Shown: positions 1,899 to 61,400, numbered from the stretch's first letter. The stretch: 64,000 nt of DNA from Scenedesmus sp. PABB004 (GCA_014905635.1 JABVCE010000033.1:124001-188000), one strand, 5' to 3'. Made by a program: numbers and translations. Notes: generated from the letters alone by a model not told the origin.

Positions 1899-2525
1899 CG
1901 CCGCCGCCGGCGGCCGCCGCTGCTGCTGCTGCGCCGCCTGGCCGGGCTTCCCGCCGCTGACCGCGCCGCCGCGGGTGCGGCCTAATGGGAGCGCCTGGAG
2001 ACGCTAGAGCGACGCTTCGGCGGGCTGGATGGCGCAGGGAGCGCGGGCCGCCTCGCCTCGGGAGCGGCGCTCGCTGCGCCTTGACGCGGTCGTGTTGTGG
2101 TGGTGGCGCTGAGAGAGAGTGCAGCGCGCGTTGGGGCGGCGCGGCGCGGCCTGTGGGCTGTTTTGCGAAATGACATGCGGGCAAACGGGCGGGCTGTGCA
2201 GCGACAGGTGGCGCCTCCGCGCGCGCACGCGTGGCCAGGAGCACACCCGCACGGCCCGCCGCGTCTCCGGCCCACTGCAGCGGCGCCGCATCGCCCCGCG
2301 CGCCAGCCGGGCGGTGTTGAGCAGCTCGGGCCCTCCCGGCGCGCCGCGGAGCCCATGCGCGGACCGCTGGAGCACCCCCATCGCAACTAGGCGCACGCAG
2401 ACGCCGCCCGCAGCGCGGCGCACGCCCGGGCCGCCGGAGCGCCGCGCACGCGCGCGCATTCGCGGCGCGCCGCCGCCGCTGCCCCCGCCAGCCCCGCGCG
2501 CCGAGGCCGCGCGGACGCGGGCGCC

Positions 2526-5500
2526 ATGGAGAACATCAGGTGTGCACGTCACGCGCGGGGCCGCGCGCAGGCGCGCAGCGCGCGCGGCGCGCAACGGCGG
2601 CGGCAACCGCCGGCGCACGCGCGCGCCCGCGTGCCCCGCAGCGTGAGCGTGCGCGTGCGGCCGCTCAACCGCGCCGAGGCGGGCGACGGCTTCGCCTGGA
2701 AGATCGAGGGCAACAGCATGTTCCAGGTCGACCCCGCGACGCGCGAGCCGGAGCGCGCGCGCGACGCCAAGTACGCGCTCGACCACGTCTTCGGCCCCCA
2801 GCGCAGCACGCGCGAGATCTACGAGGTCACCACGCAGGGCCTCATCCGCAAGCTCGTCAACGGCTTCAACTCCACCGTCTTTGCGTACGGCCAGACGAGC
2901 AGCGGCAAGACGCACACGATGCGCGGCACGGCGGCCGAGCCCGGCATCATCACGCTCGCCGTGCAGGAGGTCTTCGGACTCATCGACTCCCTGCAGGACC
3001 GCGAGTTCCTGCTGCGCGTGTCGTACATGGAGGTGCGTACCTTACAAGGGGGTGGGAGGGAGGGTGACCGCGGGCGCCGGCGGCGGGCGTTGCGCGCCGC
3101 GCGCGGCTGCGCAACGCTCACCCCGGTCCGGACCGCGCCAACCGTGCGTCGCGGCGCAGCTGTACAACGAGGACATCAACGACCTGCTCGCGCCGGAGAA
3201 CCTCAAGCTCCCCATCCACGAGTCCAAGGAGAGCGGCGTGTACGTCGCGGGGCTGCGCGAGGACATCGTGGTGTCCACAGAGCAGGCGCGCCGCGCGCCG
3301 CGCGCCGCGCGCCGCGCGCCGCGCGCCCTGCAGGGCTGCTGCAGGGCTGCTGCGCCGCGCGGCGTGCGCCCCTGGGCGCCGCGCGCGCCCTGCGCGCGTG
3401 CGTGCGCGTCGCCGGCGCCGCCGGCTGAGAGCCCGGCCGCTGCCGCCGGCGCTGCGTGTGGCGCGCCGCGTTGCGCTGCAGGTGCTGGACCTCATCCGGC
3501 AGGGCGAGGCGAACCGCCACATCGGCGCGACCAAGATGAACGAGGGCAGCAGCCGCAGCCACACCGTGTTCCGCATGGTGCGCGCGCGGCGCGCCGTGCG
3601 CGCCGGCCGACCTGCGCGGCGCGCCGCGGCGCGGCGCGCGCCCCGGCCCGACCGCCGCCGCGGCGCCCGCCCGCCCGCGCGCGCGCGCGCCGCAGGTCAT
3701 CGAGTCGCGCGCGCGCGCCGACCCCGGCGCGGAGGAGCCCGAGGCGGCCGCGCCCGACGCGGGCGCGATCCTGGTGTCGACGCTGACGCTGGTCGACCTC
3801 GCCGGCAGCGAGCGCGTGGCCAAGACGGGCGCGGAGGGCATCCGCATGAAGGAGGGCACCGCCATCAACAAGAGCCTCCTCACGCTCGGCAACGTCATCA
3901 ACAAGCTCAGCGAGGGCGTCGCCGCCGCGGGTGCGCCGCGCGGGCGCGGGCGCGGGCGCGGGACGCGGGCGCGGGCGCGGGCGGGCGGGGGCCTCTGCTC
4001 TGCGCGGCGGGGGCCGGCGCCGCGGGCGCTGACGCGCGGCCGTGCTCGCGCGCCGCCCCCCGTTTGCGGCGCAGGCGGGCACATCCCGTACCGCGACTCC
4101 AAGCTCACGCGCATCCTGCAGCCCTCGCTCGGCGGCAACGCCAAGACCGCGATCATCTGCAACGTCACGCCCGCGGGCGTCCACGTCGAGGAGAGCCACT
4201 CGACGCTGCGCTTCGCGTGCCGCGCCAAGCGCGTGGTCAACAACGCCGTCGTCAACGAGGTGCTCTCCGACGCCGCGGTGCTCAAGCGGCAGGCCAACGA
4301 GATCGCGGAGCTGCGCCGCGCGCTCGCGGCGGGCGGGTGCGCGGCCGGCGCGCGGCCGCGGGCGTGCGGCTGCGGCCGCCCGCGATCGCCGCGCGCGCGC
4401 GCGCGCGTGCGCGCAGCCGGGGGCCGGCCCCGCGCGGCCGCCCACGCGCCCCCGCCGCGCGCCGCGCGCCCGCCCGGCGGCCGCGCAGCAACGCGGACGT
4501 GGAGGAGCAGATCGGGCACCTGCGCGCGCAGCTGCTGCGCAGCGAGCAGGACAACGAGCTCATGCGCATCAAGCTCGAGACAGAGACGGCGGAGCGCGAG
4601 AAGGCGCAGAAGCAGGTCCGGCCTGAGCTGACGCCGCGAGCTGACGCCTGCTAGCGCCGCGCGCCGGCGGCCCTGCGCCGCCGCGCGCCGCGCGTGGCGT
4701 GCGCTGCTGCCCCGGCTGAGCCGCTCATGGCCGGCCCTGCTGTCGTGTGTGTGACCTGCCATGCCCTATCATGCCCTGTCGTGTGTGTGCTCAGGTGGAG
4801 ATGGCCAAGAAGATAATGTTTGAGCAGGCCAAGGAGGACGGCGCGCCGTTGCGCAAGAGCAGCCGGCGCGAGACGTGGTGCCCCGGCCGCTCCGCGTGGG
4901 GGCCGCCGCTCGCGGGTGCGCGCGCGCCGCGACTGCGCGTGCCGGCGACGGCCCGGCCGGGGCGCGCGCCGCCGGGAGCGCGGGCTGCTGACGAGCTGCC
5001 GACGCCGCCGCCGCCCTCCGGCGCACAGACGGCACCAACCGCAAGCGCCCGCTTCAGGCGCTGAGCGTGCTTGACGAGGAGGGCGCTGAGCGCAGCCTCC
5101 TGATGTCGGCGCTGGTGGAGGAGGGCGACGAGGGCGCGTCGGAGCATCGCGCGCAGCGCGCGCGCCGCAGCGACGGCGACGAGGCCTCGTCCGGCGAGCG
5201 CGACGACGACTCCGAGGCGCCCGGCCCGCTGCTGCCGGCGTCGGTGCACGTCCGCAAGTCGTCCGTCGCGGGCGGCCGGGTGCGCGAGGAGCGCCGCCGC
5301 CGCCACCGAGCGCGCGCGCCCCGCCGCCGCCCGCCCACACCGTCCGCTGCCCGCACCCGTGCCCGCCCGCGCGCCACAGCTCAACTCGGAGCTGGTTGAG
5401 GCGCTGCAGGCGCGCGTGCGCGAGCTGGAGGCGGACTCCGAGGCGGGCAAGGCGGAGCTGGTCGCCGCGCTGCAGCGCGTGGCCGGCCAGGAGGCGGCGC

Positions 5501-18777: not shown

Positions 18778-21621
<2,844 letters not shown>

Positions 21622-22056: not shown

Positions 22057-22966
22057 CTAGCGGCCAAAGTAGCCGGCCGCCTGCGCGCCAAGGCTGGCCA
22101 GCTGGCTCGCGGCGCTGAAGAGGTAGTTGGTGACCACCGAGCCGTCGCCGACGAGGCACCTGCGCGCGTGGCGCGGCCCCGCCGCGTGGCGGCGCCGCGG
22201 GCGCGTTGTGTGAGGGGCGGCGGCGTGCGACGCGGTGCGGCGCGCGGCAACACGCGCTGCGGCAGCGCGCGGCAGTGCCGCCGCGCCGCCGCAGCACACA
22301 CATCATGAGGTCGGGCTTCTCCTTGAACGGGAAGACGGGCTCACCGCGCATGCAGTAGCCTGCGCCGGCGCGGCGGGGGGGGGGGGGGGGGGGGGGCGGA
22401 GAGCTCAGCGGCGGTGCGCGGCAGCACGGGCGGCGGGCGCGGCTGCGCCGGCGGGCGCGCTGCGCTGCGCTGCGGTCGGGGAGCGCGGCGCCAGCGCACG
22501 GCGGCGCTCGCCGTTCATGGCGGGCAGCAGGATGGGGATGTTGCTCGCGACCGCGTTGATCGGCGGTGCGACAATGTTGATGCCCGCGTTGACGGCCGGC
22601 GGGATCGCGCCCGCGATGGCCGCCGCGCCGCCGCCAAACTGGCGCAGCCCGCGCCCCGCGGCGGCGGCGCCGCCTGCGGCCGCGGCGGCGGCGGCGCGCG
22701 CGCGGGCCGCGCGTCGGCAGCCGGCGGGCGCGGCGAGGGCCGGCGGTTGGAAGCTGCACCGGCGGCTCCACACCGGCGTCCCCCGCGCGGCCGGAAGCTG
22801 CAGCGCAGCGCCCCCGAGCTGCCCGGGCGCGCCAGGACCGCGACGGCGCTGCGGGGGGCAGCCAGCGAGGGCTGCCCGGGCCGCCGCTGGCCTCGGCGCG
22901 GGGCGCCGCACCTGCTGCCAGGGCGAGAACGAGGGCCGCCAGAACCAGCTTGATTGGCCTGGCCAT
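22057..22966 (-). CDS. Small secreted protein / putative prepropeptide, 125 aa, 4 exons
   Basis: Exons 22966-22912, 22673-22512, 22359-22302 and 22159-22057 total 378 nt, in frame: MARPIKLVLAALVLALAAGGAAAAGRGLRQFGGGAAAIAGAIPPAVNAGINIVAPPINAVASNIPILLPAMNGYCMRGEPVFPFKEKPDLMMCLVGDGSVVTNYLFSAASQLASLGAQAAGYFGR*. Confidence 0.75.
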
Positions 22967-23445
22967 GGTGATGAAAGGCGTCCCACCGCACGCGCGCGAG
23001 CTGGGGACAGGCCGCGAGGCGAGGGGAGGCTCGTGGTGGGCGCGAGCTGGCCGCGGCGCTGCGCGGTCTGCGCGCGCGAGGGATGTGAGCTAGAGCTTGT
23101 GAGAGCTCGTGGCCGGTCGCGGCTGGCGCGATCGGGTCGGAGGGGGCGCGCGGCTCGAGGAAGGTGGCGCGGCGCACGCGGGAAAGCCTCCTGAGTCCCG
23201 ACGCGCGCCCGGCGTTCAGCGCAGATTCATCCTGCAGCTTCCACGGATGCGCTGCAAGCGCATGAGCAGGCCGCGCAGGCGCCGGCTGCCGTCGCGGCGG
23301 CTGCAGAAGCAGCGGCGCCGGCTGCAGCAGCGGCACTCATCGTCCAGTGCGTGTGCTGTCCCCTGTGCGACCGTCAGTCCCTCAGTGCGACAGACAAGCA
23401 CTCTCAGAGCTAGCGGGCCCCCCGCGAGTGCGCGGCGCGCGCTGT

Positions 23446-26400
23446 TCACAGCGCCGTGAAGAGCGCGACGAGCGCGGCGCCGGCGGCCGCGGCCGCCCAC
23501 GGCGCGCCGCGCCCCATGGAACCCGCGCCCGCGCGCGCGCGCGCCCGTGAGCCCCGGGGAGAGATCATACACGAGACCCGCGGCGGGGCAGGCCGTGGCC
23601 CCGAGGCTGAACACCGCCTGCGCGCCGCCCGGCAGCCGCGCCGCGGTGATCGCGACCGCGGGCTGCGCGCCGGGGAAGGCGCCCGCCAACGACGACCAGC
23701 CGCCTGCGCGGCGCGCGGTGCGGCGGCGGCCGCCCTTGTCGCCGCGTGCACGCGGCTGCCCCCGTCGGTCGCGCCGCGCAGCCCACGGGGCCCAGGGCGC
23801 ACCGTCGGCGTGCCACGTGACCTCGGCCACGCCCGCGGGGCAGGCGGGGTCCACGTCGTCGATGAAGCTCACGTTGCAGGCGGGGCCCTCAAACAGCGTC
23901 AGCCGCAGCGCCGCGCCGCACCCCGCGCGTCCGCCGGCCGCGAGGCCAGGGCACGCGGCCGCCGACACCGAGGCGTTCAGCGCGGCCGTGCCCGACAGCG
24001 ACCGCCCTGCGCGCGGCGGCGGGCGGCCGCGCGCGCACGGCGGGCGCGGCGGGGCGGGGCGGGGTGGAGCGCGCGCGCAGACACAAGCACAGCGTCCTGA
24101 GCCGGCGCGACGTGCCGCGCGCGTCGCCCGCACCCGCGCGGCAGGCGGCCAGGCGGTCCGCGAGCTCGCGGCTGCTGCCGGCGCCGAGGCGGGCCGCGAG
24201 CCAGCCGTCGACCGTGCCGTCCAGGCCGGCCAGGAACGACCGCTCCGCCGCGCCCTGCTGCGGCGGCGGGCTCGCGGCGGGCGGCGCGGGGCTGCTCGCG
24301 CTGCCGCCGCCGTCGCTCGCGTTAGCGGCGGCGGCGCAGGGGTGCTCCTCCAGGTAGCGGAGCGCCGCGAGCGCCTGCACCACGCCGTAGCCGTAGCTCG
24401 GGTCGCGCCCCGCGCCGCCGCGGTCGAGCGCGGTCGCCGACAGCGCGGCGCGCACGTCCGCGGCGGCGCAGCCGGGGTGCGCGCTCCACACCACGCCCGC
24501 GACGCCCGCGGCGTGCGGCGTCGCCATGCTCGTGCCGGAGAAGGCCGCCAGCGCCGCGGGCGCCCCCGCGCCGCAGGGCTCGAGCGTCGCGGCCAGCGCG
24601 CCGGGCGGCGCCGCCGCGAGCGCGGCCGCGACCGCGCGGCCCTGCACGAGGCTGATCGCAAACGCGAGCGGCCAGCCGCCCGGCGGCGCCGCCGCGCAGC
24701 CGCTGTCCTGGGGGTAGAGCAGGCTCAGGTCGTCGCTGTAGTACAGCGGCGAGCAGGGCGGCTGCGCGCAGTCGGCGCCGCCCGCGGGGTCGCAGCCCGC
24801 GCGCGTGTCGGCGGCGTAAAAGAGCGCCAAGCCAGCTGGCCGTGATCCACCTGGATCAGGCACACCGCGCCCGCCGCGCCGGGGCAGGCCGCGCCCGCTG
24901 CGGCGCCGCAGTCGGCCAGCGGCGCGGTCACGGGCGACAGCGACGCGCCGCCGGCGCCGTCGACGAGGTGCGGCCAGGGGTTGATCAGCAGGCCCGGGTT
25001 GTCGGCGGGCGGCGTGAAGGGGCTGAGGATCAGGCGGCGCTTGTCGAGGTTGTACGAGCTCGCGCACGCGGCGGCCAGGGGGATGGTGCTCAGCGTGCTC
25101 ACCCCCGGCGCGGCCCTGGCGCGGCGGCGGGGACAGCGCGGCGCGCCGCGGCGCGCGGCAGCCGATCAGCTGCCGGCGGGAGCGCGGGAGGCGCCCAGTG
25201 CGGCAGCGCGCGCACCACTCGACGTCCGAGTTTGCGTTGCTGAAGCTCGCTACCGCGAGGCTCCAGTCCACCGCGGCGACGCTGACGACCTCCGGAAACG
25301 CCGCGGGGTAGGTCATGGCGCTGGTGCCGTCGTTCCCCGCCGCGGCGACAAACAGGACGTCCCCCGGCCGCGCGCCGCCGATGTCCCGCAGCGCGGCGCC
25401 GAGCGCCGCGGTCGGCGCGCTCGCGTCGGCGGGGTCGCCGTCGGCGCCGCTCCACCCGAGGCTCATGCTGACGACCAGCCTGATGCTCGAGTCGTTGGCC
25501 GCCGCGCGGCGCTCGTCCAGCTCGGCGAGGCAGTCCTGCCAGCCAAAGATGAGGTCAGTCAGGTCCACCGAGTCGTTGGGACCGAACACGTTGATGCTTT
25601 CGGCGGGCGGGCGCCGCCGGGCGGCGGGCGGCGGGCGGCGGGCGGCGGGCGCGCGCTCGAGGGCCGCGCGCGCGGGCCACGCCCCCCCCCCCCCCCCCCC
25701 CCCGCGGCGCGGCAGGCGTGCGCCGCGCCGCACGCACTGGTACAGCTCCGCGCCCTCCGCCGACACGCCGACCACGCCGCTGGCGCCGCCGCGCGTGGCG
25801 GCGATCGTGCCTGCGCCGGCGCAGGCGGCGCGGTCAGCCTGGTGCTGCCAGCAGCAGCACCGGCGACGGCACCAGCCGCGCGGCGCCGGCCCCGCACCCG
25901 ACGTGTGCGTGCCGTGGCCCATCGCGTCGTCGTGCCAGGGAAAGGTGCAGTCGTGCGCCGTCCCGGTCAGCGGCCGCACCGCGCCGGGCGTGCAGCCGCT
26001 GGTCGAAGCTGCGCGGCGCGGCGGCGCGGGCGCGCGGGCGCGTGGGCGCCTGCGGCGCGGCGCGGCGGGCGCGGCGCCAGGGCAGCTGGCCGCCTGCGCG
26101 CACCGGCGCTGAACTCCGGGTTGCGCACGTCCAGCCCGGAGTCCAGGACGCAGAACACCACCCTGCCGCGGTCTGCGCGGGTGATGTTGACAACCTCGGC
26201 CGCGTCCGCCTGCACCGCGGCAATGCCATAGGGCACGCACTCGCCGTCGCGCCCGCAGTTGGTGCCGGGCGGCGAGTCCACGAAGCGCAGCGGCGAGCAC
26301 GCGGTGGACGCCGCGGCGCGCGCGCGCCGCGCCAGCGCGGCGGCCGCCGGCGCCTGCTCGCGCAGCGCGCGCCGCGCGCTCGCGCCCTCCGCGCGGCCGG

Positions 26401-26914
26401 CGAGCAGGCGCGCCCGCGGGATCTCGTGCACGCCGCGCACCGCGTCCGGCAGCACCGCGGCGAGGCGCGCCTTGGCGCGCGTGACCGCGCGCCGAGCCGC
26501 CGCGGGGCGAGCCGTCGCCGCGGCGCGCGCGCCACCGGGGCGCCGGAACGACGGGCCCGCTCGTTCACCGGGTGCCGCTGTGGGAGCCACGCTCGACTGC
26601 CCGGCTCCCGCCACCGGCGGCGGGGCCGCCCGGCCGCGCGGCGCGGCAGCCGCGGGCGTGCCAGGGGCGCCAGCCGTCGCGTCTGCCTCTGCGGCGGCGC
26701 GCACCGTCACCGACGTGGCTGGGTCCTCCACCACCAGGAACGACTGGGACTCGCTGCGCTTTTCCACGACAAAGCCCAGCCGCTCGTAGGCCGCCGCGGC
26801 CTTGGCGAGCTGCCCTGGCTCGACAGACACAAAGAAGGACGGCGGCGCCGCCGCGTGCGCCGCCGCCCCGAGCAGCAGCAGGCTCAGCAGCACGGCCCGC
26901 CACGCGTGCGTCAT
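23446..26914 (-). CDS. Secreted subtilisin-like serine protease (S8) with PA-domain-like insert; 3' end uncertain (23446 or 23216)
   Basis: Signal MTHAWRAVLLSLLLLGAAAHA, catalytic Asp FCVLDSG, His GHGTHTSG, oxyanion AAAGNDG and Ser GTSMATPHAAG, plus YGYGVV. There is a frame break near 24840. Confidence 0.9.
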
Positions 26915-27323
26915 GGCGGACAAAGCAGCTAGCTCACGGAGGAGTGGCAGGGCGCGATGGCGCGTGTGGAGCCCAAGGGCGCGCGGTCAACGCGCTCGCC
27001 ACGCGCGGCGGCGCATGCTGCTCGTTTGGCCGTTGCAGGGCGCTGAGCCGTGAGAGGCGGAGCTTCACACCCTCGCGCGACCGCGGGGAGGGCGCCTGCG
27101 GCGGCGCTGTGCCGCGGCGGTTGAGGCGGGCGCGGCGGCTGTGCCGGGCCCGCGCAGCACCACAGGCAACGGCCGCGCCGAGTTGCCCAGGCCGCCCACG
27201 ACTGATCAGAGCCGCAGTGCCGCCACAATGTGAACTGTCCCTGCCCCCGCCCGCGACCCCCGCCCCCCCCCCCCCCCCTTCAACCCCCAGCCGCGCGCTC
27301 GCCGCCGCCGACGACGGCGAGCG

Positions 27324-30300
27324 TCACCGCCGCACGCCGCCGCCGCCGACGGCCGGCCCGCCGCCGACGGCGCCGAGCACGAGGCTGCTGATGCCGCCCG
27401 CGCTCTTGCTGCTCGCGTGCGCGTGGATGCGCGCCATCTCGGCGGGGCTGAAGTGCAGCAGGCGGGCGAGCACGCCCATCATCGCGCCGCCCGTCGGCAG
27501 CTCGCCGCTCTCAAAGCCGCTCACGATCACGCTACGCAGGTACAGCGCGTCGCGGTCGGTGATCTGGCTCATGCTCTCCAGGCGCTCCACCTCGTCCCGC
27601 GCGGCGCGCAGCGCGCGCTCGCCCTCCTCCCACGCGCCGCGCCACTCGCGCGCCTGCGCGTCGAGTGCGGCCAGGCGGTGCCGCAGCGCCTCGGGCGCGA
27701 GCCCCCGCAGGTCGGGCGAGCCGCCGCCGCCGCCGGCGCCTGGGGCGCCGCCGGCCGCGCCGGCGCCCGGGACGCCGCCGGCGCCGCCCGGGCCGGGCGC
27801 GCCGTCGTCGAGGCTCAGGCGCAGCGTGCTGAGCGGCAGGTTGCCGCCGGCGTCGGCCAGCGCCGCGTGCGGCGGCTCCGCGAGCGCGCCCCCCGCCGCG
27901 TCGGCGCTGGCCGCGCGGCCCGGCGCGCCGCCGAGCGGCGACAGCCCCACGCCCTGCTGCGCCGCGCTGTTGCTGCGCGAGTGCGCCGGCGAGAGGCCGC
28001 CGGCGCCGCCGCTCGCGTGCGAGTGCAGCCCGCCGCTGCCGCCGCGGCCCAGGAGCAGGCCAGTGAACTTGCCGCTGAACGCGGGGCTGGCCAGCCCGCC
28101 GCCGCGCTCGGCCGCCGCCGCCGCCGCTGCCGCCGCGCCGCCCGACGCGGTGGCCCACGCGCCCGACAGCGTCGCAGGGAGCGCGCCGGGCGCGTGGCTG
28201 GGCGACGGCGCCGCCGACGAGACCGCGCTGCCCCAGCCCCCGGCGGCGCCGGCGGCGCTGGCGGCTCCGGCGGCGCGCGGCGCCGACGCGCCCAGCGCCG
28301 ACGGCTGGCCGAGGCTGCGCAGCTGCGCGCGCAGCGCCTCCAGCTCGCCGTCCTTCTCCTCCAGCACACCGTACACGCGCTCGCGCAGCGCCGCCATCTC
28401 GCCCTGTGCGCGGCGGCGGCGGCCGCCCAGCGCCCGCGGGGTGGGCGCGCGTCCGCAGCGCGCCGCGGCGCGGCCGGCGCGCTGTGCAGCAGGGGCAGGG
28501 CGCGCGTGCACGCGCACAACCACACACCTGCAGCTCCTCGCACTGCTGCTGCCAGTGCTCGGCCTCGCCCTGGCCCGCAGACCCCGCCGCGTCGAGCTGC
28601 CGCTGCAGCGCCGCGACCTCAGCCGCCGCGGCGTCGCGCGCGGCGGCGAGCGCCGCTGCGGCCTCGGCCGCGGCCGCCCTGCCCCGTGCCTCGGCGGCCG
28701 CGAGCGCCTCGGCCAGGTCGTTGGCGCGCTGCGCGGCCGCCGCGGCGGCGGCCTCCGCGGCCGTCGCGCGCGCGCAGGCAGAGTCTGCGGCGCTCTCCAG
28801 GCGCGCCATGTCGCGCTGCGTGTGCTCCTCCAGCACGGCGATGTTCTCGGCCTGCGACGCGCGGGGCGGCGGCGCGTGAGCACGCCAGGGCCGCGTGCGG
28901 GGGGCGCGCGAGCAGGCGGGCGCGCCGCTGCGCGCGCGCGCGCCTGCTTCTGCGCGGCGTCGTCGCGCAGCGCCGCCTCGGCCGCCTCCACCGCCGCGAG
29001 CACGCCGCGCGGCCAGGCCTCGCGCGGGAGGGCGGGGATGTTGTCGAACGCCGCGGCCGCCGCTGCGCGCGCGCCGTCGGCGGCCGCGCGCGCCTCGTCG
29101 AGCGCCGCGGTCAGTGCCTCGCTCTCGGACGACACCGCGAGCGCGCGCTGCTCCAGGCGCGCGACCTGGCGCTCGGTGCGCTCCAGGCGCTCGCGGAGCT
29201 TGTCGTTGTCCGACATCAGCTGCGCGGCGCGGTCGTCGGCGCCCTCGAGGGACGCCAGCTGCGCCGCCGCCGCGTCGTAGCGCGCCTGCAGCGCCTCGAG
29301 CTGCGCCGCCGCGGCCGCGGCGCTGCTGCTGCTCGCGCGCAGCGCGTCCAGCTCGGCGTGAAGGCGCGCCGCCTCGGCCTGCCAGCGCGTCGCGCCGATG
29401 GCGGGCGGTCGCGGCGGCGGTCGGCGCGCGCGGCCGCGGCGGGGGAGCCCGGCGGCGGCGGCGCGGCGCACGCAGCGCCCCCCCCCCCCCCCCCCGCACC
29501 TGGCTGGCGTCGCGCTGGCCCTTGGCCTCTGCGAGCTGGCGGCTGAGCTCGCTGAGCTCCGCGCCCGCGCCGGTCATCTGGCGCTCGGCCTCGGCCAGCG
29601 CGCGGCGGAGCCCCGCCGCCTCGCTCGCGGCCGAGTCGGACTCGCTCGCGCTGCTGCGCAGCGCGCCCAGCTCGGCCGTCGCGTCGTCGAGCTGCCGCCG
29701 CGCCTCGGCCTCGCTCAGCTCCAGCGTGCGCAGACGCTCCTGCAGCTCCGCGGCCTTGAGCTGCGCGACGGCGGGGGCGGCGCGGCGCGGCGCGGCGCGG
29801 CGCTCAGCCGGGCGGCGCGGCGCGCTCAGCCGGGCGGCGCGGCGAGCACCACGCTGCCCGCGCAGCCGCCGCCGCCAGGGCCGGCCCGCCGCACACCTGC
29901 AGCTCCTCGAGCTCCTCCGCCTTCTTCTTGGCTATGCGCCGCAGCCGCCCCGCCTCCTCCTCGTGCGCGGCCGCCGCGGCGTCGCGGTCGGCGGCCGCGC
30001 GGGCCGCCTCGGCCGTCGCCGCGGCCGCGGCCGCGGCCGCGTCGCGCGCCTGCGCCTTGAGCTCGGCCGCGTCCGCCCGCAGCAGCGCGACCTCGCGCGA
30101 CGACGCCTCCTGCGCGTCCGCCGCGGCGACGCTGCGCGCCTGCACCGCCTCGACCGCGGCGGCGAGCTGCCGCTCCAGCGCGGCGCGCTCGGCCGCGCCC
30201 GCCTCCAGCGCCTTGTCCGCCTCGGACAGGCGCTGCAGCACCGACTCCTTCTGGCGCGCCGCCACGGCCTGCGCAGGAGCGGGAGGGGCGGCGGCGGCGG

Positions 30301-45302: not shown

Positions 45303-48300
45303 CTAGCGCGCCGCGGCGCTGCGGGGCCGGCTCGGCGACCGCGCGCCGCTGCCCACGCGGAGCGCCGCGAGCGCCCGCGCCTCGCGCTCCGCCTGCTCGG
45401 TGCGCACCTTGTCGAGCGCCGCGCGCCGCCGCGCGCCGTCGGCCTGCAGGCGCGCGTAGAAGGCATCGAGCTCGGCCTTGGACACCGCCTTGCCGCGCCG
45501 CGCGGCCTCGGCCGCCGCCCACGCCGCGCGCTGCTTGGCCTCGCGCGCCGCGATGTCGGCCTCCGTGAACTCGATGAACGCCTGGCTGCGCAGCGCGCGG
45601 AAGACGCCGAGCTGCTTCGCCCGGCCGGCCGCCGCGTCGAGCTGATCCAGCCCCGCCCAGCGCACGCCCGCGAGCAGCTTCACGGCGTGCCCCAGCGGGT
45701 CGGGCTCGGGCCGCACCCCCGGCAGCGCCGCGCCGCCGGCGCCGCCCGCTGCGGCGGGCGCGCGCGCCGCGCCGCTGCCCCTGCCCTTGCCCTTGCCTGC
45801 GGCGGCGGCCGCCTTGGCCGCCGCCGCCTCGGCGGCCGTGCGCTGCGCGTCCAGCGCGCCCTGCGCGGGGCGCGTGAGGCCGTCCAGGCTCCAAGGCGGG
45901 GCCAGCCAGTCAATGGCGGGCGCGGCCTGCGCCGGAGCGCCGCCGCCGCCGCCGCCGCCCGCCGCCGCCGCTGCGGCGCGCTCCCTGTCGTGCAGCCGCT
46001 CCGCCTCTGTCTTGTACGCCCGCGCGCGCCGGAGCAGCGCGGCCAGCTGCTCGTCGCAGTCGTCTGCGGGTCGCGGGAGTCAGAGCGGCGGCGCCCGCGC
46101 GCCTGCGGCAGCTGGCGGCCGGGCCGGCGCTCGCGCGCGCGCTCGTGCGCCGCGCCCTCACCGCCTGGCTCGGCCACCTCCCAGCCGAGCCGCCCGAACC
46201 ATGCTGCCGCGGCGCGCAGGTCGCGCGCCTCGGGCGTCGCGGGCGCGGCGGCCGCCGCGGCGCGCGCGGCGGGGCTCGCGCCCGAGGGCGCCGCCGCCGC
46301 GCGCTGCTGGCTGCACCAGCGCGCCTGCAGCTCCGCCAGCCGGCCGTCGCGCGTCGCGAGGTCGGCGGCGTAGCGCTCCATGAACTGCGCGCTGCGCACA
46401 GCCGCCGCGGCCGCCGCGAGCTTGCGCGCGCCGCGCGTCCCCAGCACGGCGCGCCGGCCTGCGTCGTCGAGGCCGAGCGCCGCCGCGTGCGCCTCGAACG
46501 CCTGCGGCCGCGCGGCGGCGCGTGCCGTGTCAGCCGCCGGGCCAGGCGGCGGCAGCGCGGTGGCGCCGCGGCTGCGAGTTAAGGCACGTGCGCGCTTGAG
46601 GAAGGCGTCGCCGCCGCCGCACCGCGTCGACCGCCTCGTCCAGCTCTGCCAGGCCCGCCTCGTCGCCCAGGCCGGCCGCTGGCGCGGCGACGCTCGCCCA
46701 GCCGCGCTGCTCAAAGAACGCGCACACGAGGGCCAGGTCCGCGGCCGCGCCGCCGCCGCCGCTGCCGACGCCGCCCGCGGCGTCGCCCCAGTGCCGCTCC
46801 TGCAGCTCGCGCAGCCGGCCCGCGCGGCGCTGGAGGTCGTTGTGCAGGCGGTCCAGGAAGCCGCCGCCGCCGGCGGCGCCGCGCGCCTCGGCCATGATGC
46901 GCTGTGAGCGGCCGCTGATGCGCGGGTGGAAGGTGAGGTCGGCCTCCGACGGGCTTTCCCACGGCCGCGCGTGCGACTCGGGCCGAGGGTGCGCCGCGCG
47001 CGTGCCGGCGCCGACGTGGCGCCACGGGATCGCGCCGCGCGCGTCCACGCCGCCGCCGGCGGAGCAGCCCGTCGGCGGGCTCTTGCTGTCCAGGTCGGCC
47101 AGCGCGCCCTGCAGGCGCGCCACCTCGGCCGCCGCGAGCCGCGCGACGCCGCCGACCTGGGCCGCGGCGCTCGTCTGCGCCGCCGCGCGCGCCTGAGCGC
47201 GGCCGAGCTCAAACAGCAGCTTGGCACGCTGCTCAGGGACGCCGACGCGCCCCGCGGCCGGGCCGAGCGCGCCGGGGCCGCCGGGCTGCGGGCTGGGCGA
47301 GCGGCCGCGGCCGCGGCAGGGTGCGCTGCTGGGCCGCCCCCGCGCGCCGCCGGCAGGGCACGGCTCCGGCGCGCTCGGCCGTGCGCCGCTCAGCGCAGGG
47401 CCCCTGCTGCCGCGCCGGCCGCGGCGCTGCGCGGCCGCGGCGCCAACGCTCCCCGCCGCGAGCACGGCCAGCTCGACGGCGCCCAGCGTCGGGTCCAGCT
47501 GCCCCGGGTCCGCCGCCGCGGCCGCCGCGGCGCGAAGGTCTGCCGCCGCGGCCGCCTCGACCGCCTCCAGCAGCGCCGCGCGGTGGCCCTGCGCGCACGC
47601 GCGCGCCGCGGCGGTGACGGCAGCGGCGGCGGTGACGGCGGCGGGTGCGGGCGCGCGCGCCGCCGCCGCCACGGCCCGCCCTGGCGCGCGCCGGCGCGCG
47701 GCCGGCGGGCCAGCGCACCAGCGGCCCGACGCCGAGGTCGCGCAGCTGGGCATCGGTAATCCGCGCCAGGAGGCGGCCGTCCACGGCGTTGTGGACGAGC
47801 CTCTGGCGATACTGCCCCAGGCCCTGAGCGCCGACCCACTCGCACACATCAAGAACTGCGCACAGCGGCGTCGCCGAGCCGGCGGCGGCGTGGGCGGCGA
47901 GGCGCCAGCGGGCAGCGCTCGGGCGGCAGAGGGCGGTGCGCATCGCCCCGCACCGTCCCACTGCTCCAGCGGCAGCGCCTCCGGGGGCGGGGCAGGCGGC
48001 CCTGGCTGCGCCGACCACGGCCGCGCCGCGGTGACCGGCGGCGGCGGCTCCGCCCACCAGTCGCCGCCGGCGGGCTCGCACGGCTGCTGCGCCGCGCTGG
48101 TGGAAGCTCCCCCGGGCGTGGGCAGGCCATCCCCGGACCCCGGCCGCGCGCGGCGGTGGCCGCCGGCGCTCGCGCTCGCCGAGCGCGTCACGTTGTCGCG
48201 CGGCACCGGCGGCGGCGCGGCGCGCTCCGCCTCCGGCTGCGCCTCCGCCGCCTCTGGTGCAGGCGCCCAGGCCGGCGCCCACGCCGCCGCCACCGCCTGC

Positions 48301-48614
48301 TCTTCGCCGCTGCAGCGCGGGCTGTCAGCAGCGCGGCTGGCGCGGTTGCTGGCCGGCGCCGGGCTGTCTGCGCGGCTGGCGGGGCCGCTGGCCGCCGCGG
48401 CCTCGCTGGCGCCGCTGACCTCGCCGGCCACGGCGGCCACGTCGGCCGCGCCGGCCTCGTGGGCGCTGGCCGCGGCGGCGGGCGCGGGGAGCCCCTCGTC
48501 GACCAGCCAGGCGTCGAGCTGCTCGTCGGTCAGCGCCGGCGGCTGCGGCGGCTCCTGCGCGCTCTCCTCGAGCTCGTCGTCAGTCTCGTAGTCTTCCACC
48601 TCATAATCCTCCAT
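45303..48614 (-). CDS. SAM-domain protein with TFxP motif and helical repeats (unknown function, possibly cytoskeletal)
   Basis: Acidic start MEDYEVEDYETDDE, SAM-like LEQWD..VCEWVGAQGLGQYRQRLVHNAVDGRLLARITDAQLRDLGVGPLGHRAALLEAV, then DLTFHPRIS...FLDRLHND. Stop TAG at 45303. Confidence 0.8.
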
Positions 48615-52375: not shown

Positions 52376-54523
52376 GCACGCGCACGCGCACGCGCACGCG
52401 CACGCGCACGCGCACGCACGCACACGCGCACCGCCCTTCCCTTCGTGCCCGGCCCCGGCGGCCGCGCCGACCCCGTGGCCCGTCCCGCGACTCCGCCCCA
52501 GGCCCCTTCAACGTGCTGACCGCGGGCCTGAGTGTGAAGAACTACACCGACATCGTCACCGCGCTCACCCTGCTCGCGGGCAAGGGCGGCCTGACCAAGA
52601 AGCTCCCGGGGGACACCAAGACCGTCAACGAGCGGGTGCGGCGCCGCGGCGCGGGGCGGGAGCGCGACTGCAGCGCGCGGCCGGCGCGGGCGCGCCGACC
52701 CGGGCCGCCGCCTGCCGACCGCCGCGCGCCGACCGCCGCCCGCCGCCCGCCTGCGCGCCGCGCGCCGCGCGCGCAGCTGATCGAGCTGTCGGCCTACATG
52801 GTCTGGGTGAGTTGCAGCAGTCGCGCGATCGCCGCACCCTTTTATCAAAACCTAAAAACCACCCTAAACCCCAAACCCTCAACCCTAAACTAGGTGACCT
52901 GGGCGGCGTACGTCAACAGCAACTTTGTGCCGACGCGGCTCGACCCGGTCGAGGGCGAGAGCGGCAAAGACATGGTGCGCCCGCGGCGGCCGCGGCGGCG
53001 GCGCCGCCCGGCGCGCGGCGCCGCCGCCGACGCCGCCCGCGCCCGCGCACCAGGTGGGGCGCACCAACCTGCTGTCCATGTCCTTCCCCTGCGCCATGAC
53101 CTTCAACAGCACCGCCGCGCCGGGCTACCAGGTCCGCGGCCGCGCCCGGGCGCCGCCCGGCGGCGGCGGGGCAGGCGCGCCGCCGTCTGCGCGCGCGCGC
53201 TGCCTGCGCGCGTGCCGCCAACGCCCGCCGCGCCGCCTGCTCCCCTCCCCAACATCAACAAACAAAAACGACGGCAGTGCTTCTACGGCGACCCTCCCTC
53301 GCCCGACATCGTGCCGCTGACCTTTAACGACCTCGAGGTCACCCTGCCCGACGACGGCACCTGGAAGTCCTTTGTGCGCGGTGCGAAGCCGCGCGTGCGC
53401 CGCGCCGCGCCGCGCGCCGCGCCGCCGCCCGCCACGCCGGGCACCTGGCACCTGGCACCTGGCACCTGGCACCTCGCTCGCCCCCGCGCGCCCCACACGC
53501 CCGCCCGCGGGCCCGCCCCGCCCCGCCCCGCCCCGCCCGCCGCCCGCCCCGCGTCTGCCCGGCAGACGTGCGGCGCATCGTGAAGATGGACCTTGCCGCG
53601 ACGGTCAAGGGCCACCCCGGCGTGACGCCGTTCATGCCCTTTGGCCCCGGCATCCTCTTCAGGCGCGCCGGGGCTCAGGGCTCAGCGCCGGGGTTCAGGG
53701 CTCAGAGGGCCCCGCGCGGCCCTCCCTCCTCGCGCGCGCCGGCCCGCACGCCGCGCGCCGGGCTCACCCTGCACCGCGCCGCCGCGCGCCGGGATCACCC
53801 CGCCGCTGCCCATTACCCGCCCCGCCGCGCACCACCACTGCCACGCCCCCCGCCGTGCTCCCCCCCCTCCCAGGTGGACTAAGCGCTCCAACACGCTCAT
53901 GGGCATGAACGGCCGCGGCAGCGTGGTCTGGGCGTCGGTCGAGTCGTTTGCCGCGCTGCACACCGCCGAGACGCCCTTCCCCGCGCGCAACTACCACCTC
54001 AGCGACATCATGGAGCACCTCCTCGTCTGCAAGTGAGAGCCCGCGCCGCGCCGCGCCGCGCCGCGCCGCGGCGGCGGCCAGGGGCCGACCGCTCGGGGCG
54101 CGCCGCGCGCCGCGCGCCGCGCGCCGCGCGCCGCCCCGCCTCGCCCGCGCGCGCCGCGCGACGCCCCCCCCCCCTGAAAACCCCGCCGCGCCGCAACACA
54201 GGTACAAGGGCCGCCTGCACTGGGGCAAGAACACGGACCGCGCGTTCCTCAATCCCGACCCCGCCTGCCGCTACGCCGAAACGCTCGCGGACGAGCTCCG
54301 CGAGCTCTCCGCGCTGCAGGACGCGTACGACCCCAACCGCGTGTTTGAGCCGCCGCTCATCGCCAAAATAAAGGCCGGCGCGGTGCCGCCGTACTTCCCC
54401 GGCTGCGAGGTCACGCGGTCGTGCTACTGCGCGGCCGACGAGCACTGCGCGCCGGGGTGGGCCTGCAGGGCGTCGCTCGCGTTCCCCGCGTTCAAGGTCT
54501 GCACGCCGCCCGAGGACTGGTGA
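50713..54523 (+). CDS. Secreted FAD-linked oxidase, L-gulonolactone oxidase / ALO family (13 exons)
   Basis: Signal peptide, STAEVAAIVK...PHSPATFIC (putative FAD-linking His), LTVGGCFSAASHGSS, LAGGLGMLGIVTELTIQ, GRLHWGKN, YDPNRVFEP, and a Cys-rich C-terminus (CYCAADEHCAPGWAC) as in plant GulLO proteins. Confidence 0.88.
52285..52430. repeat. (CA)n microsatellite (~40 units) grading into (CGCACG)n, intronic
   Basis: Direct reading of the sequence; preceded by a short CT-rich tract. Confidence 0.97.
52846..52891. repeat. Degenerate interstitial telomere-like (CCCTAAA)n tract in an intron
   Basis: aaaacctaaaaaccaccctaaaccccaaaccctcaaccctaaac lies immediately before the TAG acceptor. Confidence 0.65.
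53439..53474. repeat. (GGCACCT)x5 heptamer tandem repeat, intronic
   Basis: ggcacctggcacctggcacctggcacctggcacct. Confidence 0.9.
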
Positions 54524-55478: not shown

Positions 55479-58400
55479 ATGGGCAAGCACGACGAGGAGG
55501 GCCCGTTCGCGCACGTGGGCGTGCTGCCAGTGAGGTGCGCACCGGGGCCCCGCACTGGCGCGGCGGCGGCAGCAGCAGCGGCCGTCGAACGGCGGAGCGC
55601 CGCCCCCCGCGCGGGGCGCGCAGCAGGCTGGGCCGGCGCCGTGCCTTGGTGCAGGGCGCCTTAGGCAGCAGCCTGGGCCCGCGCGGCAGCGGCCAGGCGA
55701 CGACGACGCCCCGCCGCACGCCGCTCCGCCGCGCCGCGCGCGCAGCACCAAGGACGACGAGGCGCGCCTGCTGCGCGGCCATGGCCCCGGCTCCACCGCC
55801 CCGCTCCACCACGTGTCGGCGTTTGATGTCGAGTTTGTGGAGGAGGACGGTGACGAGCTGCTCGACTGGCAGCGCCACGCGCCGGCGCGCTCGCGCTGCC
55901 GCTGCTGCGCGGCGCTGCTGCCGGAGCCGCCCGCGTGCTGGTGGGCGCTGACGCAGGGCCAGCGCGCGGCCGCGCGCGCCGCGGCCGCGTCGGCGGGCCT
56001 GCTCGCGGCCGCGCTGGCGGTTCTGGGGATCGCGTTCGCGCTGCGAGGCGGCGGCGGCGGCGGCGGCGGCGGCGCGGGCCTGGCGGCGCCGGCGCGCTAC
56101 GCGCCGCTCGCCGCGGCGCCCGAGGACAGCCCGTACTGCTCCTGGGACGGCCTGGAGCTGCCCCAGGCCGTGGCGCCGCTGTCGTACAAGCTCCACGTCG
56201 CGTCCGACCTTGCGCCGCCGTTTGCGGTGCGCGGGGAGGTGGACATCGCGCTGCGCGCGGAGGCCGCGATGCCGTGCGTCGTGCTGCACGCGCGGGGACT
56301 GGAGATCGAGGCCGTGTCGCTCCTGGTATACGGCGCCGCGCCCGGCGCGCCCGCCGCGCAGCGGCCGGTCGAGGTCGCGGGTGCGGCGGCGGCAGCGCAC
56401 CGGCGCCGCGGCGCCGGCGCCGGCGCTGCGCAGCAGCCCAGGCGCGCCGCATCCGCGCCAAGTCCGCGCCGCCGCCGCGCCCGCGCAGGCGCCGTGCGCA
56501 GCGCGAGCGAGGAGCGGCAGCAGGTGACGCTGGTGTTCCCCGAGGCGGTGCCGCTGCCGCCGCTGCAGCCGGTGCTGCGCCTGCGCTTCTCGTACACGCT
56601 GCAGGAGGCCCTGGACGGCTTCTATCGCAGCTCCTTCATCGGTGCGCCTCGGGGCCTCGGAGCGCAGGGCGCGGCTCAACGCGCGGCGCGGCGGCGCCCG
56701 GCCGCCGCCGCCGCCGCCGCGCCGCCGCCGCGCCGGCTGGCGGGGCGCGCAGCTGCGCGTGGCCCCGACGCGCGCCGCCGCGCTGCCCCGCAGACGCCGC
56801 AAACGAGACCAAGCTGCTCGCGTCGACGCAGTTTGAGTCCATCGCCGCGCGCAAGGCGTTCCCCTGCTTTGATGAGCCGCGCTGGAAGGTGGGCCGCGCG
56901 CGCGTGCTGGCCGGCCGGCCGACCCCCGCGCGCCCGCCGCTCGCGCCGCGCGGCGCGCCCAGCGGCCCCTGACAGGGAGGGGCCCTGCGCCCGCCCGCCC
57001 GCCCGGCCGGCCGCCGGCCGCGCAGGCCACGTTTGAACTAAAGGTCAGCGCGCCGCCGCCGCCGATCGTCGTGCTGTCAAACATGCCGCTCAGCCATACC
57101 CACAGCGCGGAGCCCGCGGCGGGTGCGCGGCGCGGCGCGCGCCGCGCGCCGCCGGGGCACGCGCGCCCGCGCGCGCGCGGGCTCGGCCCAGCGCCGCGCG
57201 CGGCGGCGCCGGCGCCGCCGCCCGCAGACGCCGCGACGGAGCGGCTGGTGACGTACCACTTTGAGCGCAGCCCGCCGATGTCGACCTACCTGGTCGCCTG
57301 GGTGGTGGGCGAGCTGGCGCACGTGGAGGCGCAGTGCGAGCTGCCGCTCCCCGCGCCCGCGCCCGCGCCGGCGGCGGGCGGCGGCGGCACCGGCGGCGGC
57401 GGCTGCTGCGCCACGGCGACGGCGGCGACGGCGACGACGACGACGCGGGCCCGGCCGGCGCCGTCGACGACGGCCGCCGCGGGCGGCGCATCCCCGTGCG
57501 CGTGTGGGGCACGAGCGACCGCGCGTCGCAGTTTGGCCACGCGCGCGACGTCGCGTGCTCCGCGCTGCAGACGTTTGAGGCACTGCTGCAGGTGCGCGCA
57601 CGCGCGCGCGCGCGCGCGGGCCGGCCGCCGCCGCCGCCCTGAGCGCCCGGCCGCCCGCGCGCCGCCGGCCGTGGCTCCGCCGCACCAGGTGCCGTACGCG
57701 CTGCCCAAGCTCGACCTGGTGGCCATCCCAAACTTTGCGGCGGGCGCAATGGAGAACTGGGGACTCCTCACCTACAGGCGTGTGCGCACACGCGCGCGGG
57801 CGGGCGGGCCCGGCGCGGCGCGGCGGCGGCCGCGCGGCGGCGGCGGGGCGCGCGGCTTGGTGGCCGCGGCCGCGGACGCGGCCGCGGCGGGGGCGCACGC
57901 GGCCGCCGCGCGCGCGCGCGCGGCGCGCAGGGAGACGGCGCTGCTCGTGGACGACGCGGTGGACGACGTGAAGCAGCGGTACGCCATCGCGACCACGGTG
58001 GCGCACGAGACGGTGCGCGGCGCGCACGCCCAGCCCGCGGCCGCGCCGCGCCGTCGCCCCCGCCGCGCCGCGCCGCCGCCGCCGTGACGTCCCCGCCGCC
58101 GCCGGCGGCGGCCCCGCAGGCGCACCAGTGGTTTGGCGACCTGGTCACGCTGGACGACTGGACCTCGCTCTGGCTCAACGAAGGCGCGCGCTCACGCCGG
58201 CGGCGCGGCGCCCGGGCGCCGGCCTGTGCAGGCGGCCGCGCCCCGCCACACAGGCCGCTGCCCCGCCGCCGCCCACAGGGTTTGCCACCTACTTTGAGGT
58301 GGTCGGCGCCGACGCGTACCGCCCACACTGGGGCTATTTCGATGACTTTTTTGACACCACGACTTCGCCAGGCGCGCGCACGCTACGCACGCTCGCGCGC

Positions 58401-61400
58401 GCGCGGGCGAGGCCCCGGCCCGGGGCGCCCGCCGCCCACGCGCGCCGCCGCCACGGCCGCCCCGCCGCCGCGCCGCGCCAGGCCTGGAGGCGGACGGCGT
58501 CGCGACGTCGCACCCGCTGACCATCTCGCGCCCGATCGAGAGCCTCGACGAAATCGACAACTGGTTTGACGGCGTCTCGTATGAGAAGGGCGGTGCCGTG
58601 CTCCGCATGCTGCGCGCGTGGCTCAACCGCGGCGACGCGTGGCTGCTGGGCCTCGCCGGCGACGCGGAGGGCGGCGAGGGCGGCCCGGGCCTGCGCCGGC
58701 GGCTCGCGCAGGCCGGCGGCGGCGAGCGCGACGGCGGCGGCGGCGGCGGCGACGCGAGCTGGTGGACGCAGGCCGCGCACGTGGGGGCCAGCACGCAGCT
58801 GCCGCCGGCGCCGGCGCCGGCGCCGGCCGCCGCCGCGGCGTCCGCCGGCGGGGACGACTACCGAGAGGCGGGGGTGCGGCCGCCGGCGACCCCCGTGGGC
58901 GCCGCCGCGGCGCCGGACAGGCCCGTGCTGCAGCCGCAGTCGCCGCCGCCCGCGGGCGACGCCGGCGGCGGCGCCGGCGGCGCAAACGCCACGGACGAGG
59001 CCTGGTGGACGCACAAGGCGCACGTCGGCGGCGCGGCCGGCGGCCTGCAGGCGCAGGCCAAGGCGGCCGGCGGCGCGCCGGCCGCGGCCGCGGCCGCCGC
59101 CGGCGCGCGGGAGGCGCCGGGCGCGCTGGCGGGGCGGGACCCCTTCCTGCGCGGCCTGCGGAGTTACCTCGGCGCGCGCATGTACCGCAGCGCCAACCAC
59201 TCGCAGCTCTGGGACCACCTCGGCGCTGCGGCGGGCGAGGCGCTGGGCGAGAAGATGTCCACCTGGACGCTGCGCAGGGGCTTCCCGATCGTCTCGGTCG
59301 CCCTGGAGGAGGCCGGCGCGGGCGCGGGCGCGAACGGCACGGACGCGGGCGCCGGCGACACGGGCGGCGCCGCGCAGCGGCTGGTGCTGGGGCAGGTCCC
59401 ATTCCACGCCCCGCGCACGTACATGGTCGGCCTGCCCTTTGAGCCCGACATGTGCGCTCACGGCGCCTGGCTGCTCCGCGCCGCGCCGCACTGCGCACGT
59501 CGGCGCGGCGCGACCGCGCGCTCGACGCGCGCGCTGACGGGGTCGACAGCCACGAAGACTATGAGGTAGAAAATCACCTGCGCCCGCGTGGCCCACACGC
59601 GCCGGCGCGCCGGCCGCCGCACGCCCGGGCGCCGCAGGTACTGCAACGACTGGTCGGAAGACCCCGCCGACAGCGCGTGGTGGATCCCCATCGCGCTGCG
59701 CGTCGCGGTGCGCGCGCCGCTGCCTCCGCGCGCTGCTGGGCCGCGCGTGCGCCTGCTGACCCGCGCGGCGCCGCCGCTCCGCGGCTGCGCCAGGGCTCGC
59801 GCGAGGTCGCGTGGCACGCCTTCTCCAACTGCAGCGCCGCGGTGCCGCTGCGCGTGCCGCGCAACGGCTGGGTGCTCGCCAACGCGGGTGCGCGCGCGTG
59901 CGCGGGGCTGAGCGCGCCTGCCCCTCTCGCCGCCCCGCCTCGGCCGCGTCTGACGCGCCGCCGCGCCGGGCCCGTGCCCCGTCTCTGGCTCCCTTCCTGC
60001 AGGGCGGTTTGGGTTTTACCGCGTCAATTACAGCCGCCCGCTCTGGGCGGCGCTCGCGGGCGCGGCGCGCGACGTCGCGGCGGTGCCGCCCTCGGACTTT
60101 GCGGGTGCGGCGGCGGGGCCGCGCGCCGCCGCCGCGCGGCGCTGCGCCACACCGCCCCACCGCCTGCACCGCCCACCGCCAACCTCGCCCGCGCGCCCGC
60201 CAGGCCTGCTGGACGACGCGTATGCGCTGTCGCGCGTGCGCCAGCTCAGCGTGACGGTCTTCCTGGAGCTGAGCGCCGCGCTGGGCGCGCGCCTCGCGCC
60301 CGAGCACACGCCGTGGAGCGTCGGCCTCGGCTGGCTGCAGCGCATGGGCGACCTGCTCGCCACCGCGGCCGACGCGTCCGCCGGCAGTGGCGGCGGCGGC
60401 GGCGGCGGCGGCGGGGCGGCGAACACGTCATCCGCCGCCACCGACTGGGGCGCCTGCTCGCGCGACCTGCGCAGCTATGTGAGCGGGCAGCTGACTGGGC
60501 CCTTCATCGAGCGCCTGCCCGTGCCGGGCCAGGCGCGGCCGGGGCTCACGTTTGAGGTGCGGCCGCGGCGCCGCGCGGCGCCGTGCCCCGCGCCCCGAGC
60601 CCTGAGCTCTGGGTCACCGCACCCCCGTCGCCGCCGCCGCCGCCGCCGCGCCGCGCAGGTCAACCCGCAGGACTCCACCGAGCTGCGCCTGCTGCGGCCC
60701 AGGGTCCTCTCCGGCGCGGGCTTCCTCGGCCACGCGCCCACGATGGCCGCCGCGGCGGCGCTGCTGCGCCGCGTCGTGTCGGGGCGGGCGGCGCTCTCGC
60801 CCGACGTGGCCAAGGCGGTCTACGGCCTCGCCGTCGGCAGCGGCGACGAGGGCGCTTTTGATGACGTGACGCGCATCTACGAGCAGGTGGGTGGGCGCGC
60901 TGAGTGCGCGTGGCATGCGCTGGCGCGGCCCGCGCGCCGCAGCTCTGGCCGCCCACGCTCCCGCGCCGCCCACGCTCCCGCGCCGCGCCGCGCCGCGCCG
61001 CGCCGCAGGCGCTCGACGCCGCCGACAAGGAGCGCGCGCTGCACGCGCTGTCGCGCGCGCCGACGCCGGGCCTCATCCGCCGCGCGCTGGAGTATGGCCT
61101 CAGCCCCGCGGTGCGCAGCCAGGACTTTGCGGCGCTGCTGGTCGGGCTCGGCAAGCAGGGCGGCACAGGGTTTGGCCTCGTGTGGGAGTTTGTGATGGCG
61201 CGCGCCGACGACATCGAGGCCAAGTACGGCGGTGAGCGCGGCAGCGCGAGCGCGGCGCAACCGGCAGCCGCCCCCCGTCGCGCCCGCACGGCCGCGCCCG
61301 CCGCCCCGGACCTCCACAAAAACACACACATGAACGGGCACCCACGCACCGCCGCCCACGCTGCTGCAGGCGGCGACCTGACCTACTCCCTCGGCCGGCC

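Follow-up and report, generated by a model that had tools for sequence, protein, structure and literature searches.

A probable four-exon gene with a small, presumably secreted product, an ordinary neighbour of a subtilase gene in Scenedesmus sp. PABB004

When prohormone-like motifs lie beside a protease gene in a green alga, do the two genes form a peptide-signalling module? The question is raised by a stretch of 64,000 nucleotides (nt) from Scenedesmus sp. PABB004 (GCA_014905635.1 JABVCE010000033.1:124001-188000), here called the window, in which positions are counted from the first letter. The original prediction placed an amidation-ready prepropeptide gene directly downstream of a gene for a subtilisin-type (S8) protease, and joined the two as a peptide-signal module. 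We lean, with some reserve, towards reading the small gene as a lineage-restricted four-exon gene for a secreted precursor of about 129 residues, the ordinary neighbour of an unrelated S8 gene. Its product would be a small secreted protein formally eligible for amidation; a role as a signalling peptide, and a tie to the S8 protease, are unsupported.

The small gene lies on the minus strand (in the splice sites below, a slash marks the exon border).

22057-22966, minus strand: small gene, four exons; splice combinations enumerated by script
22912..22966, minus strand: exon 1, from sequence reading and script; donor GCAG/GTGCGG
22500..22673, minus strand: exon 2; acceptor GCCGCAG/GC; end at 22500 (GT donor) or 22512 (GC donor)
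22302..22359, minus strand: exon 3; C20 tract and GCGCAG upstream; donor AT/GTGTGT
22057..22159, minus strand: exon 4; contains the second Cys and ends G-Y-F-G-R, then TAG (22059-22057)

Is this gene real? The window is eukaryotic, with spliced genes, and its content of guanine plus cytosine (GC) is about 80% (0.75-0.83 per 2-kb bin). Across the region, each of the six frames runs open over hundreds of codons; open frames are uninformative here, because such composition leaves every frame open. The coding evidence comes from codon position. In exons 2-4 (104 codons), AT bases fall on codon positions 1, 2, and 3 in counts of 34, 48, and 6 (chi-square p=1.7e-7), whereas the three introns are flat by the same test (p=0.65-0.96). 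GC content is 0.60-0.76 in the exons versus 0.85-0.89 in the introns. At the third codon position (GC3) it reaches 0.94 in exon 2 (first position, GC1, 0.72; second position, GC2, 0.60); 0.94 in exon 3, versus 0.56 and 0.33 at the other codon positions; and 0.94 in exon 4, backing its reading frame. The S8 exons of the same locus, which are proven coding sequence, provide the calibration for this signature: six homology-supported stretches have GC3 values of 0.94-1.0, like those of the small-gene exons. An unbiased sliding scan found periodic segments between 22000 and 23000 only on exons 2, 3, and 4, and GC3 drops directly 3' of the small-gene TAG.

Periodicity of GC3 was rejected as a strand test, since it is strand-symmetric; the strand was decided by antisense stops, by GC1 relative to GC2, and by splice sites. 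The plus-strand frame that shares exon 4's third positions has TAG stops at 22058 and 22070. GC1 is above GC2 in exons 2, 3, and 4, as it is in the S8 gene. The ATG, the GT...AG borders, the C20 tract before exon 3, and the stop are found on the minus strand only. By these signs, the minus strand is the coding strand.

The length of the product depends on one donor. The original prediction described a 125-residue spliced product (exons 22966-22912, 22673-22512, 22359-22302, 22159-22057), which a script reproduced; it rests on a GC donor, AACG/GCGAGC, that ends exon 2 at 22512. A GT donor, CGCC/GTGCGC, lies 12 nt downstream. Its use ends exon 2 at 22500 and yields 129 residues, adding E-R-R-R directly before Tyr-Cys. 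The S8 donors that are anchored by homology to three algal proteins read GTGCG(C/G/T) in four cases of four, and the two remaining junctions of the small gene use GTGCGG and GTGTGT. The GT donor is preferred because it matches this local donor type, as set by the four homology-anchored S8 introns. With it, the junctions of the small gene carry local sites of the GT...AG type, in the pattern GTGCG...GCAG. The precursor would accordingly measure about 129 residues, 125 being less likely; the predicted product is largely borne out in its sequence features, though probably not in its length.

The anchored S8 donors lie at 26103, 25897, 25737, and 25215 (minus strand), and the acceptors end in GCAG, CCAG, or AAAG. 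Homopolymer C/G tracts of 18-25 nt occur in minus-strand introns at 22360-22400 and 25680-25705, and also at about 27260-27280. These tracts sit in introns just 5' of acceptors, or between genes, and may take the part of polypyrimidine tracts where GC content is so extreme.

What would the gene encode? Its ATG, at 22966-22964, stands in a Kozak-like context, CACCATGG, and is the earliest in its stop-to-stop frame. The exon 1 product contains two basic residues (positions 3 and 6), a 12-residue hydrophobic core of Leu, Val, and Ala, and small residues; judged by inspection, it is plausibly a signal-peptide-like segment. Exon 2 encodes a Gly/Ala-rich region with G-R-G-L-R-Q, followed by a stretch rich in Ala, Ile, Pro, and Asn that is free of charge. 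The first Cys is in the exon 3 product, Y-C-M-R-G-E-P...D-L-M. The last 27 residues from exon 4 are uncharged, and the end reads ...A-A-G-Y-F-G-R-TAG.

Several features are common to the 125- and 129-residue models, just as originally described: exactly two Cys; GRGLR followed by Gln; and ...GYF-G-R before the stop. Both models end in ...Y-F-G-R, a terminus of the form X-Gly-(Lys/Arg)n. Both also contain the basic endoproteolytic site R-G-L-R, and R-R-R is present solely with the GT donor. In the 129-residue model, positions 30-73 and 102-128 are without any charged residue, the charges being grouped at R-G-L-R, at E-R-R-R, in the Cys loop, and at the terminal Arg. Six of the eight basic residues past the signal peptide fall in R-G-L-R, R-R-R, or the terminal G-R.

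No relative of this product was found in the collections searched. Exon 2 was compared with metagenome contigs, giving 596 pattern matches and no confirmed one. In the ESM Atlas, exons 2 and 4 retrieved nothing usable (top score 0.77, for RHS-repeat clusters, at chance level), and neither exon matched a Pfam domain. A self-search of the window gave no paralogue: elsewhere in it, the best match scored E=0.22 with exon 4 and E=3.5 with exon 3. A query that joined exon 4 to the read-through of its upstream intron retrieved a single metagenome locus, which was rejected as spurious because the match covers the intron-derived Arg/Pro-rich part and C-L-V-G-D, and then a stop.

Other findings weigh against reading the locus as a lineage-restricted gene with a small secreted product. 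One is the weak codon-position signature of the short exon 1. The homology queries were single exons of 33-57 residues, so the sensitivity of the blanks is low. Against a library of 5.8 billion proteins, exon 2 drew 292 word-sharing candidates among proteins of 72-230 residues, none at E<=10, and exon 4 drew no candidate with three shared words among those of 44-142 residues; a phmmer search with exon 2 against 1.84 billion representatives gave no match at E<=0.001. The window's own small-gene product was also not returned by the library, from which it would follow that the gene is probably unannotated there. At most, these blanks would indicate that a close annotated relative is absent. Finally, the layout of the product (signal peptide, R-x-x-R, R-R-R, Cys pair, terminal G-R) is tidier than composition predicts, which keeps a true propeptide among the readings weighed below. 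On balance, the small gene appears to be a lineage-restricted orphan, without a demonstrable sequence family.

Some of the same observations feed a rival reading: that there is no gene here, or that the model is wrong. Chance composition in 80% GC DNA, or another transcript structure (a different start, or an exon 2 extended to the TGA at 22407-22405), would then account for what is seen. The open state of all six frames suits this alternative, as do the lack of relatives in the searches and of a paralogue in the window, the weak signature of exon 1, and the exon 2 frame, which remains open beyond both candidate donors, to 22408. It has to explain, however, why significant periodicity is restricted to three exons, with flat introns between them and dips in GC; why every junction has a canonical donor and acceptor of the local type, with the C20 tract before exon 3; why a Kozak-like ATG leads into a signal-peptide-like segment; and why GC3 declines just past the TAG. 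We hold this alternative to be unlikely, and the small gene, from its sequence features, to be probably real.

What, then, is the gene next door?

23446..26914, minus strand: subtilase (S8A) gene of at least six exons, from Pfam PF00082 and exon-by-exon tblastn
24831..24850, minus strand: apparent break in frame, or deletion, within the S8 PA domain, from comparison with three algal homologues

An S8 gene on the same strand, just upstream of the small gene, had been predicted, and one is indeed there: PF00082 is matched with E=4.5e-19, and the stop lies 479 nt before the small-gene ATG. A hydrophobic N-terminal signal or anchor precedes a long pro-region. The catalytic motifs are V-L-D-S-G (Asp), H-G-T-H-T-S-G (His), A-A-G-N-D-G (Asn), and S-G-T-S-M-A-T-P-H (Ser), and the gene also encodes a PA-domain insert, a C-terminal extension, and a hydrophobic tail before a TGA (23448-23446). 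Aligned to three algal homologues (P0001-P0003, one of them Tetradesmus obliquus OEZ85_012474), these motifs fall in the order Asp, His, Asn, Ser, with the PA domain between Asn and Ser, the arrangement of an S8A protease with a PA insert; the PA region aligns to homologues with PF02225. The top match in the PDB is 1v6c, the alkaline serine protease Apa1 (E=1.4e-23; Ser-region exon, E=3.8e-18). There are 80 database relatives, headed by a EukProt gene and by Tetradesmus obliquus OEZ85_012474, as would suit a chlorophyte-type alga; the domains among them are PA, PPC, and Big_9, and the nearest carry PA (PF02225). Six frames of the S8 gene matched no Pfam domain but PF00082 at E<=1, so that the P-domain, PF01483, was not detected, and it is not listed for the 80 relatives; no kexin or furin is among the 60 PDB sequences listed for the S8 query. 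By these matches, the neighbour is a genuine Apa1-like PA-domain subtilase, not a convertase of the kexin/furin type.

The comparisons can be drawn more finely. The catalytic core and the PA-insert architecture link the neighbouring protease to Apa1 (1v6c) and the PA-domain S8A subtilases. Its N-terminal pro-region and the order of its exons recur in the algal homologues, and the T. obliquus protein likewise opens with a hydrophobic segment that leads into a similar pro-region. Identity to the algal relatives is 35-45% only; as assembled, the gene is short of about 20 residues of their PA domain and shifts frame there, and the C-terminal tail is unlike theirs. With kexin and furin (S8B) it has in common the Asp-His-Ser subtilase fold and a secretory-pathway location, but not, as far as Pfam detects, their P-domain.

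The frame break leaves 20 nt between C-L-I-Q (ending at 24851) and L-A-L-F-Y (starting at 24830, in another frame), where the three algal homologues carry 20-21 residues. It could be an assembly error, or a real lesion or pseudogene deletion, or it could be bypassed by an atypical 87-nt splice. A short palindrome, GATCCAGGTGGATC (minus strand), adjoins the break. Further on, at about 23500-23560 on the minus strand, the frame with coding-like GC3 switches close to a (GC)n run (at about 23530). A second frame shift at about 23530 is probably needed to join the last homologous exon, the tail with perfect GC3, and the TGA at 23448-23446.

Does the S8 protease serve the small gene? The neighbourhood on both sides bears on the answer.

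19121..21621, minus strand: amidase-family gene, the downstream neighbour of the small gene (Pfam PF01425, E=1.6e-16; putative ATG at 21621)
27324..29573, minus strand: gene for a coiled-coil protein that ends in a GRIP-like domain, the upstream neighbour of the S8 gene (E=7.3e-5 against Pfam GRIP, short of the curated cut-off)

Four minus-strand genes, presumably unrelated in function, thus stand head-to-tail: golgin-like, S8, small gene, amidase-like. The spacers measure 409 nt from the golgin-like stop to the S8 ATG, 479 nt from the S8 stop to the small-gene ATG, and 435 nt from the small-gene stop to the putative amidase-like ATG. Because this spacing is generic, the adjacency of the S8 gene is that of an ordinary compact-genome neighbourhood, and the domains that Pfam finds in the window give no other hint of a cluster for peptide processing.

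In the module originally proposed, the adjacent S8 protease would be a dedicated convertase, and the pair co-inherited and co-expressed. Common strand and proximity fit this proposal, as does the S8 N-terminal signal or anchor, which would bring both products into the secretory pathway. A non-kexin S8 protease could in principle do such work: plant PA-domain subtilases mature peptide-hormone precursors. In Chlamydomonas, the protease VLE1 favours basic residues to some degree (PMC6313938). This S8, however, is without a detected P-domain; its nearest matches are Apa1-like or 'collagenolytic' subtilases of bacterial type, and algal homologues without an assigned role; and its frame, as assembled, is broken in the PA domain. 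The small gene is equally near the amidase-family gene, and the S8 gene is equally close to the golgin-like gene. Functional gene pairs are rare in eukaryotes. Moreover, an S8 homologue is known from T. obliquus, yet the exon-level searches, in a library that includes NCBI proteins, gave no relative of the small protein. For these reasons of class, frame, and spacing the module is unsupported: a dedicated pairing of the two genes is extremely improbable, and processing of the small product by the neighbouring S8 is no less so.

A polycistronic messenger RNA for S8 and the small gene was also set aside, since an upstream open reading frame of about 900-1,000 residues, with further AUGs, would block leaky scanning. 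The usual chlorophyte poly(A) signal, TGTAA, occurs only six times in the 64 kb (both strands); its absence downstream of the S8, small, and amidase-like genes is uninformative.

If the protease is set aside, is the small product nonetheless amidated? The proposal, independent of S8, is that a carboxypeptidase B-like enzyme trims the terminal Arg and PAM then forms ...Tyr-Phe-amide. Cleavage after R-R-R may in addition free the last 50 or so residues as a disulfide-looped peptide, and the role of such a product could be in signalling, adhesion, or antimicrobial defence. The terminal G-R, R-G-L-R, and (with the GT donor) R-R-R are all present, and hold the six of eight basic residues counted above. 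There is precedent in Chlamydomonas: Cre12.g487700 (ending -GR) and Cre03.g204500 (ending -GRRR) are trimmed and amidated; mass spectrometry detected three amidated products, and two of them stem from such Gly-basic ends (PMC6919629). PAM or PHM is reported from Chlamydomonas, Gonium, Volvox, Ostreococcus, Coccomyxa, and Chlorella, including non-ciliated chlorophytes (PMC6529398).

Such motifs are of low specificity, however, because they are so widespread: 756 of 771 Chlamydomonas signal-peptide proteins have convertase-type sites (PMC6313938), and 24 of its screened signal-peptide proteins end in Gly(K/R)n, of which only two were detected as amidated (PMC6919629). Moreover, the amidated products came from gel slices of more than 50 kDa, as large proteins and not as small peptides (PMC6919629). 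Composition of the S8 exons provides a chance expectation: a G[RK] end at about 0.6%, a tribasic run at about 2% in proteins of such size, and at least one [RK]xx[RK] or dibasic site at about 0.5. No orthologue was found with the single-exon queries. Nor is the machinery at hand locally: a Pfam scan of 271 stop-to-stop open reading frames of at least 150 residues in the window detected neither a PAM domain (Cu2_monooxygen) nor an M14 carboxypeptidase domain. The predicted amidation-ready prepropeptide is therefore borne out in its Gly-Arg end and basic sites, which as motifs discriminate poorly. Amidation of the secreted product, by enzymes without a tie to S8, is in our view doubtful.

Likeness to known precursors is of the same kind. 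Like Cre12.g487700 and Cre03.g204500 (GATI-amide), the small product would be secretory, with a Gly-basic C-terminus and internal basic sites, and in all of them trimming by a carboxypeptidase B-like enzyme alone would expose a PAM substrate. Cre03.g204500 is a 94 kDa protein, whereas the small-gene product is about 13 kDa and without detected relatives, so the likeness is at motif level. The Chlamydomonas precursors are described as ectosome-associated, as members of gene families, and as amidated by the evidence of mass spectrometry, whereas the small-gene product is a predicted one. The layout of metazoan prepropeptides is likewise matched at motif level only, by the signal peptide, R-x-x-R, R-R-R (129-residue model), Gln after the first site, Cys pair, and Gly-Arg.

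How would the secreted product preferred here mature? The precursor would enter the endoplasmic reticulum co-translationally, and the signal peptide would be cut near the A-A-G-G stretch. The mature protein would then have about 105-110 residues: two long uncharged segments, rich in Ala, Gly, Ile, Pro, and Asn, around a charged loop with two Cys. Secretion, and cleavage at the basic sites, would presumably follow. Removal of the terminal Arg and amidation of Phe would come last, provided that a carboxypeptidase B-like enzyme and PAM are available in this alga, as they are in many chlorophytes. For the C-terminus as such, trimming and amidation are a tentative prospect, about as doubtful as the amidated product weighed above. 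A small hormone-like amidated peptide is very unlikely: freed by a cut after R-R-R, it would span about 50 residues, form one disulfide loop, and terminate in Tyr-Phe-amide; a pyroglutamyl, charge-free N-terminal peptide of 45 residues might be freed along with it.

Elsewhere in the window, the Pfam scan identified, in addition to the amidase and S8 domains, kinesin, SAM, GULLO-like, M1 aminopeptidase with ERAP1_C, MaoC, and DUF676 domains.

2391-4628, plus strand: kinesin motor (Pfam)
47236-48324, minus strand: SAM-domain protein (Pfam)
53909-54520, plus strand: L-gulonolactone oxidase-like C-terminal domain (Pfam)
55854-61608, plus strand: M1-family aminopeptidase, multi-exon (Peptidase_M1_N, Peptidase_M1, ERAP1_C; Pfam)
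62295-63632, minus strand: MaoC dehydratase (Pfam)
62623-63768, plus strand: DUF676 serine esterase (Pfam)

The M1 aminopeptidase, about 30 kb from the small gene, belongs to a type that trims peptides, yet it is not the carboxypeptidase that amidation would require. Coding periodicity without a Pfam match extends over much of the window, as at 5-19 kb and 30-47 kb.

Together, these results carry a caution: GC-extreme proteomes rich in Arg and Gly readily yield sets of "prohormone-like" motifs, and protease neighbours to go with them. The donor rule (GTGCG), combined with the exon GC3 signature and its accompanying dips in GC, could potentially aid the annotation of this genome. If the small product is cleaved and amidated, it would be a compact and easily synthesised addition to the few amidated products of algae and, if hormone-like, the first small amidated peptide of green algae. 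It would then help to test the place of small diffusible peptides in peptidergic signalling outside the animals.

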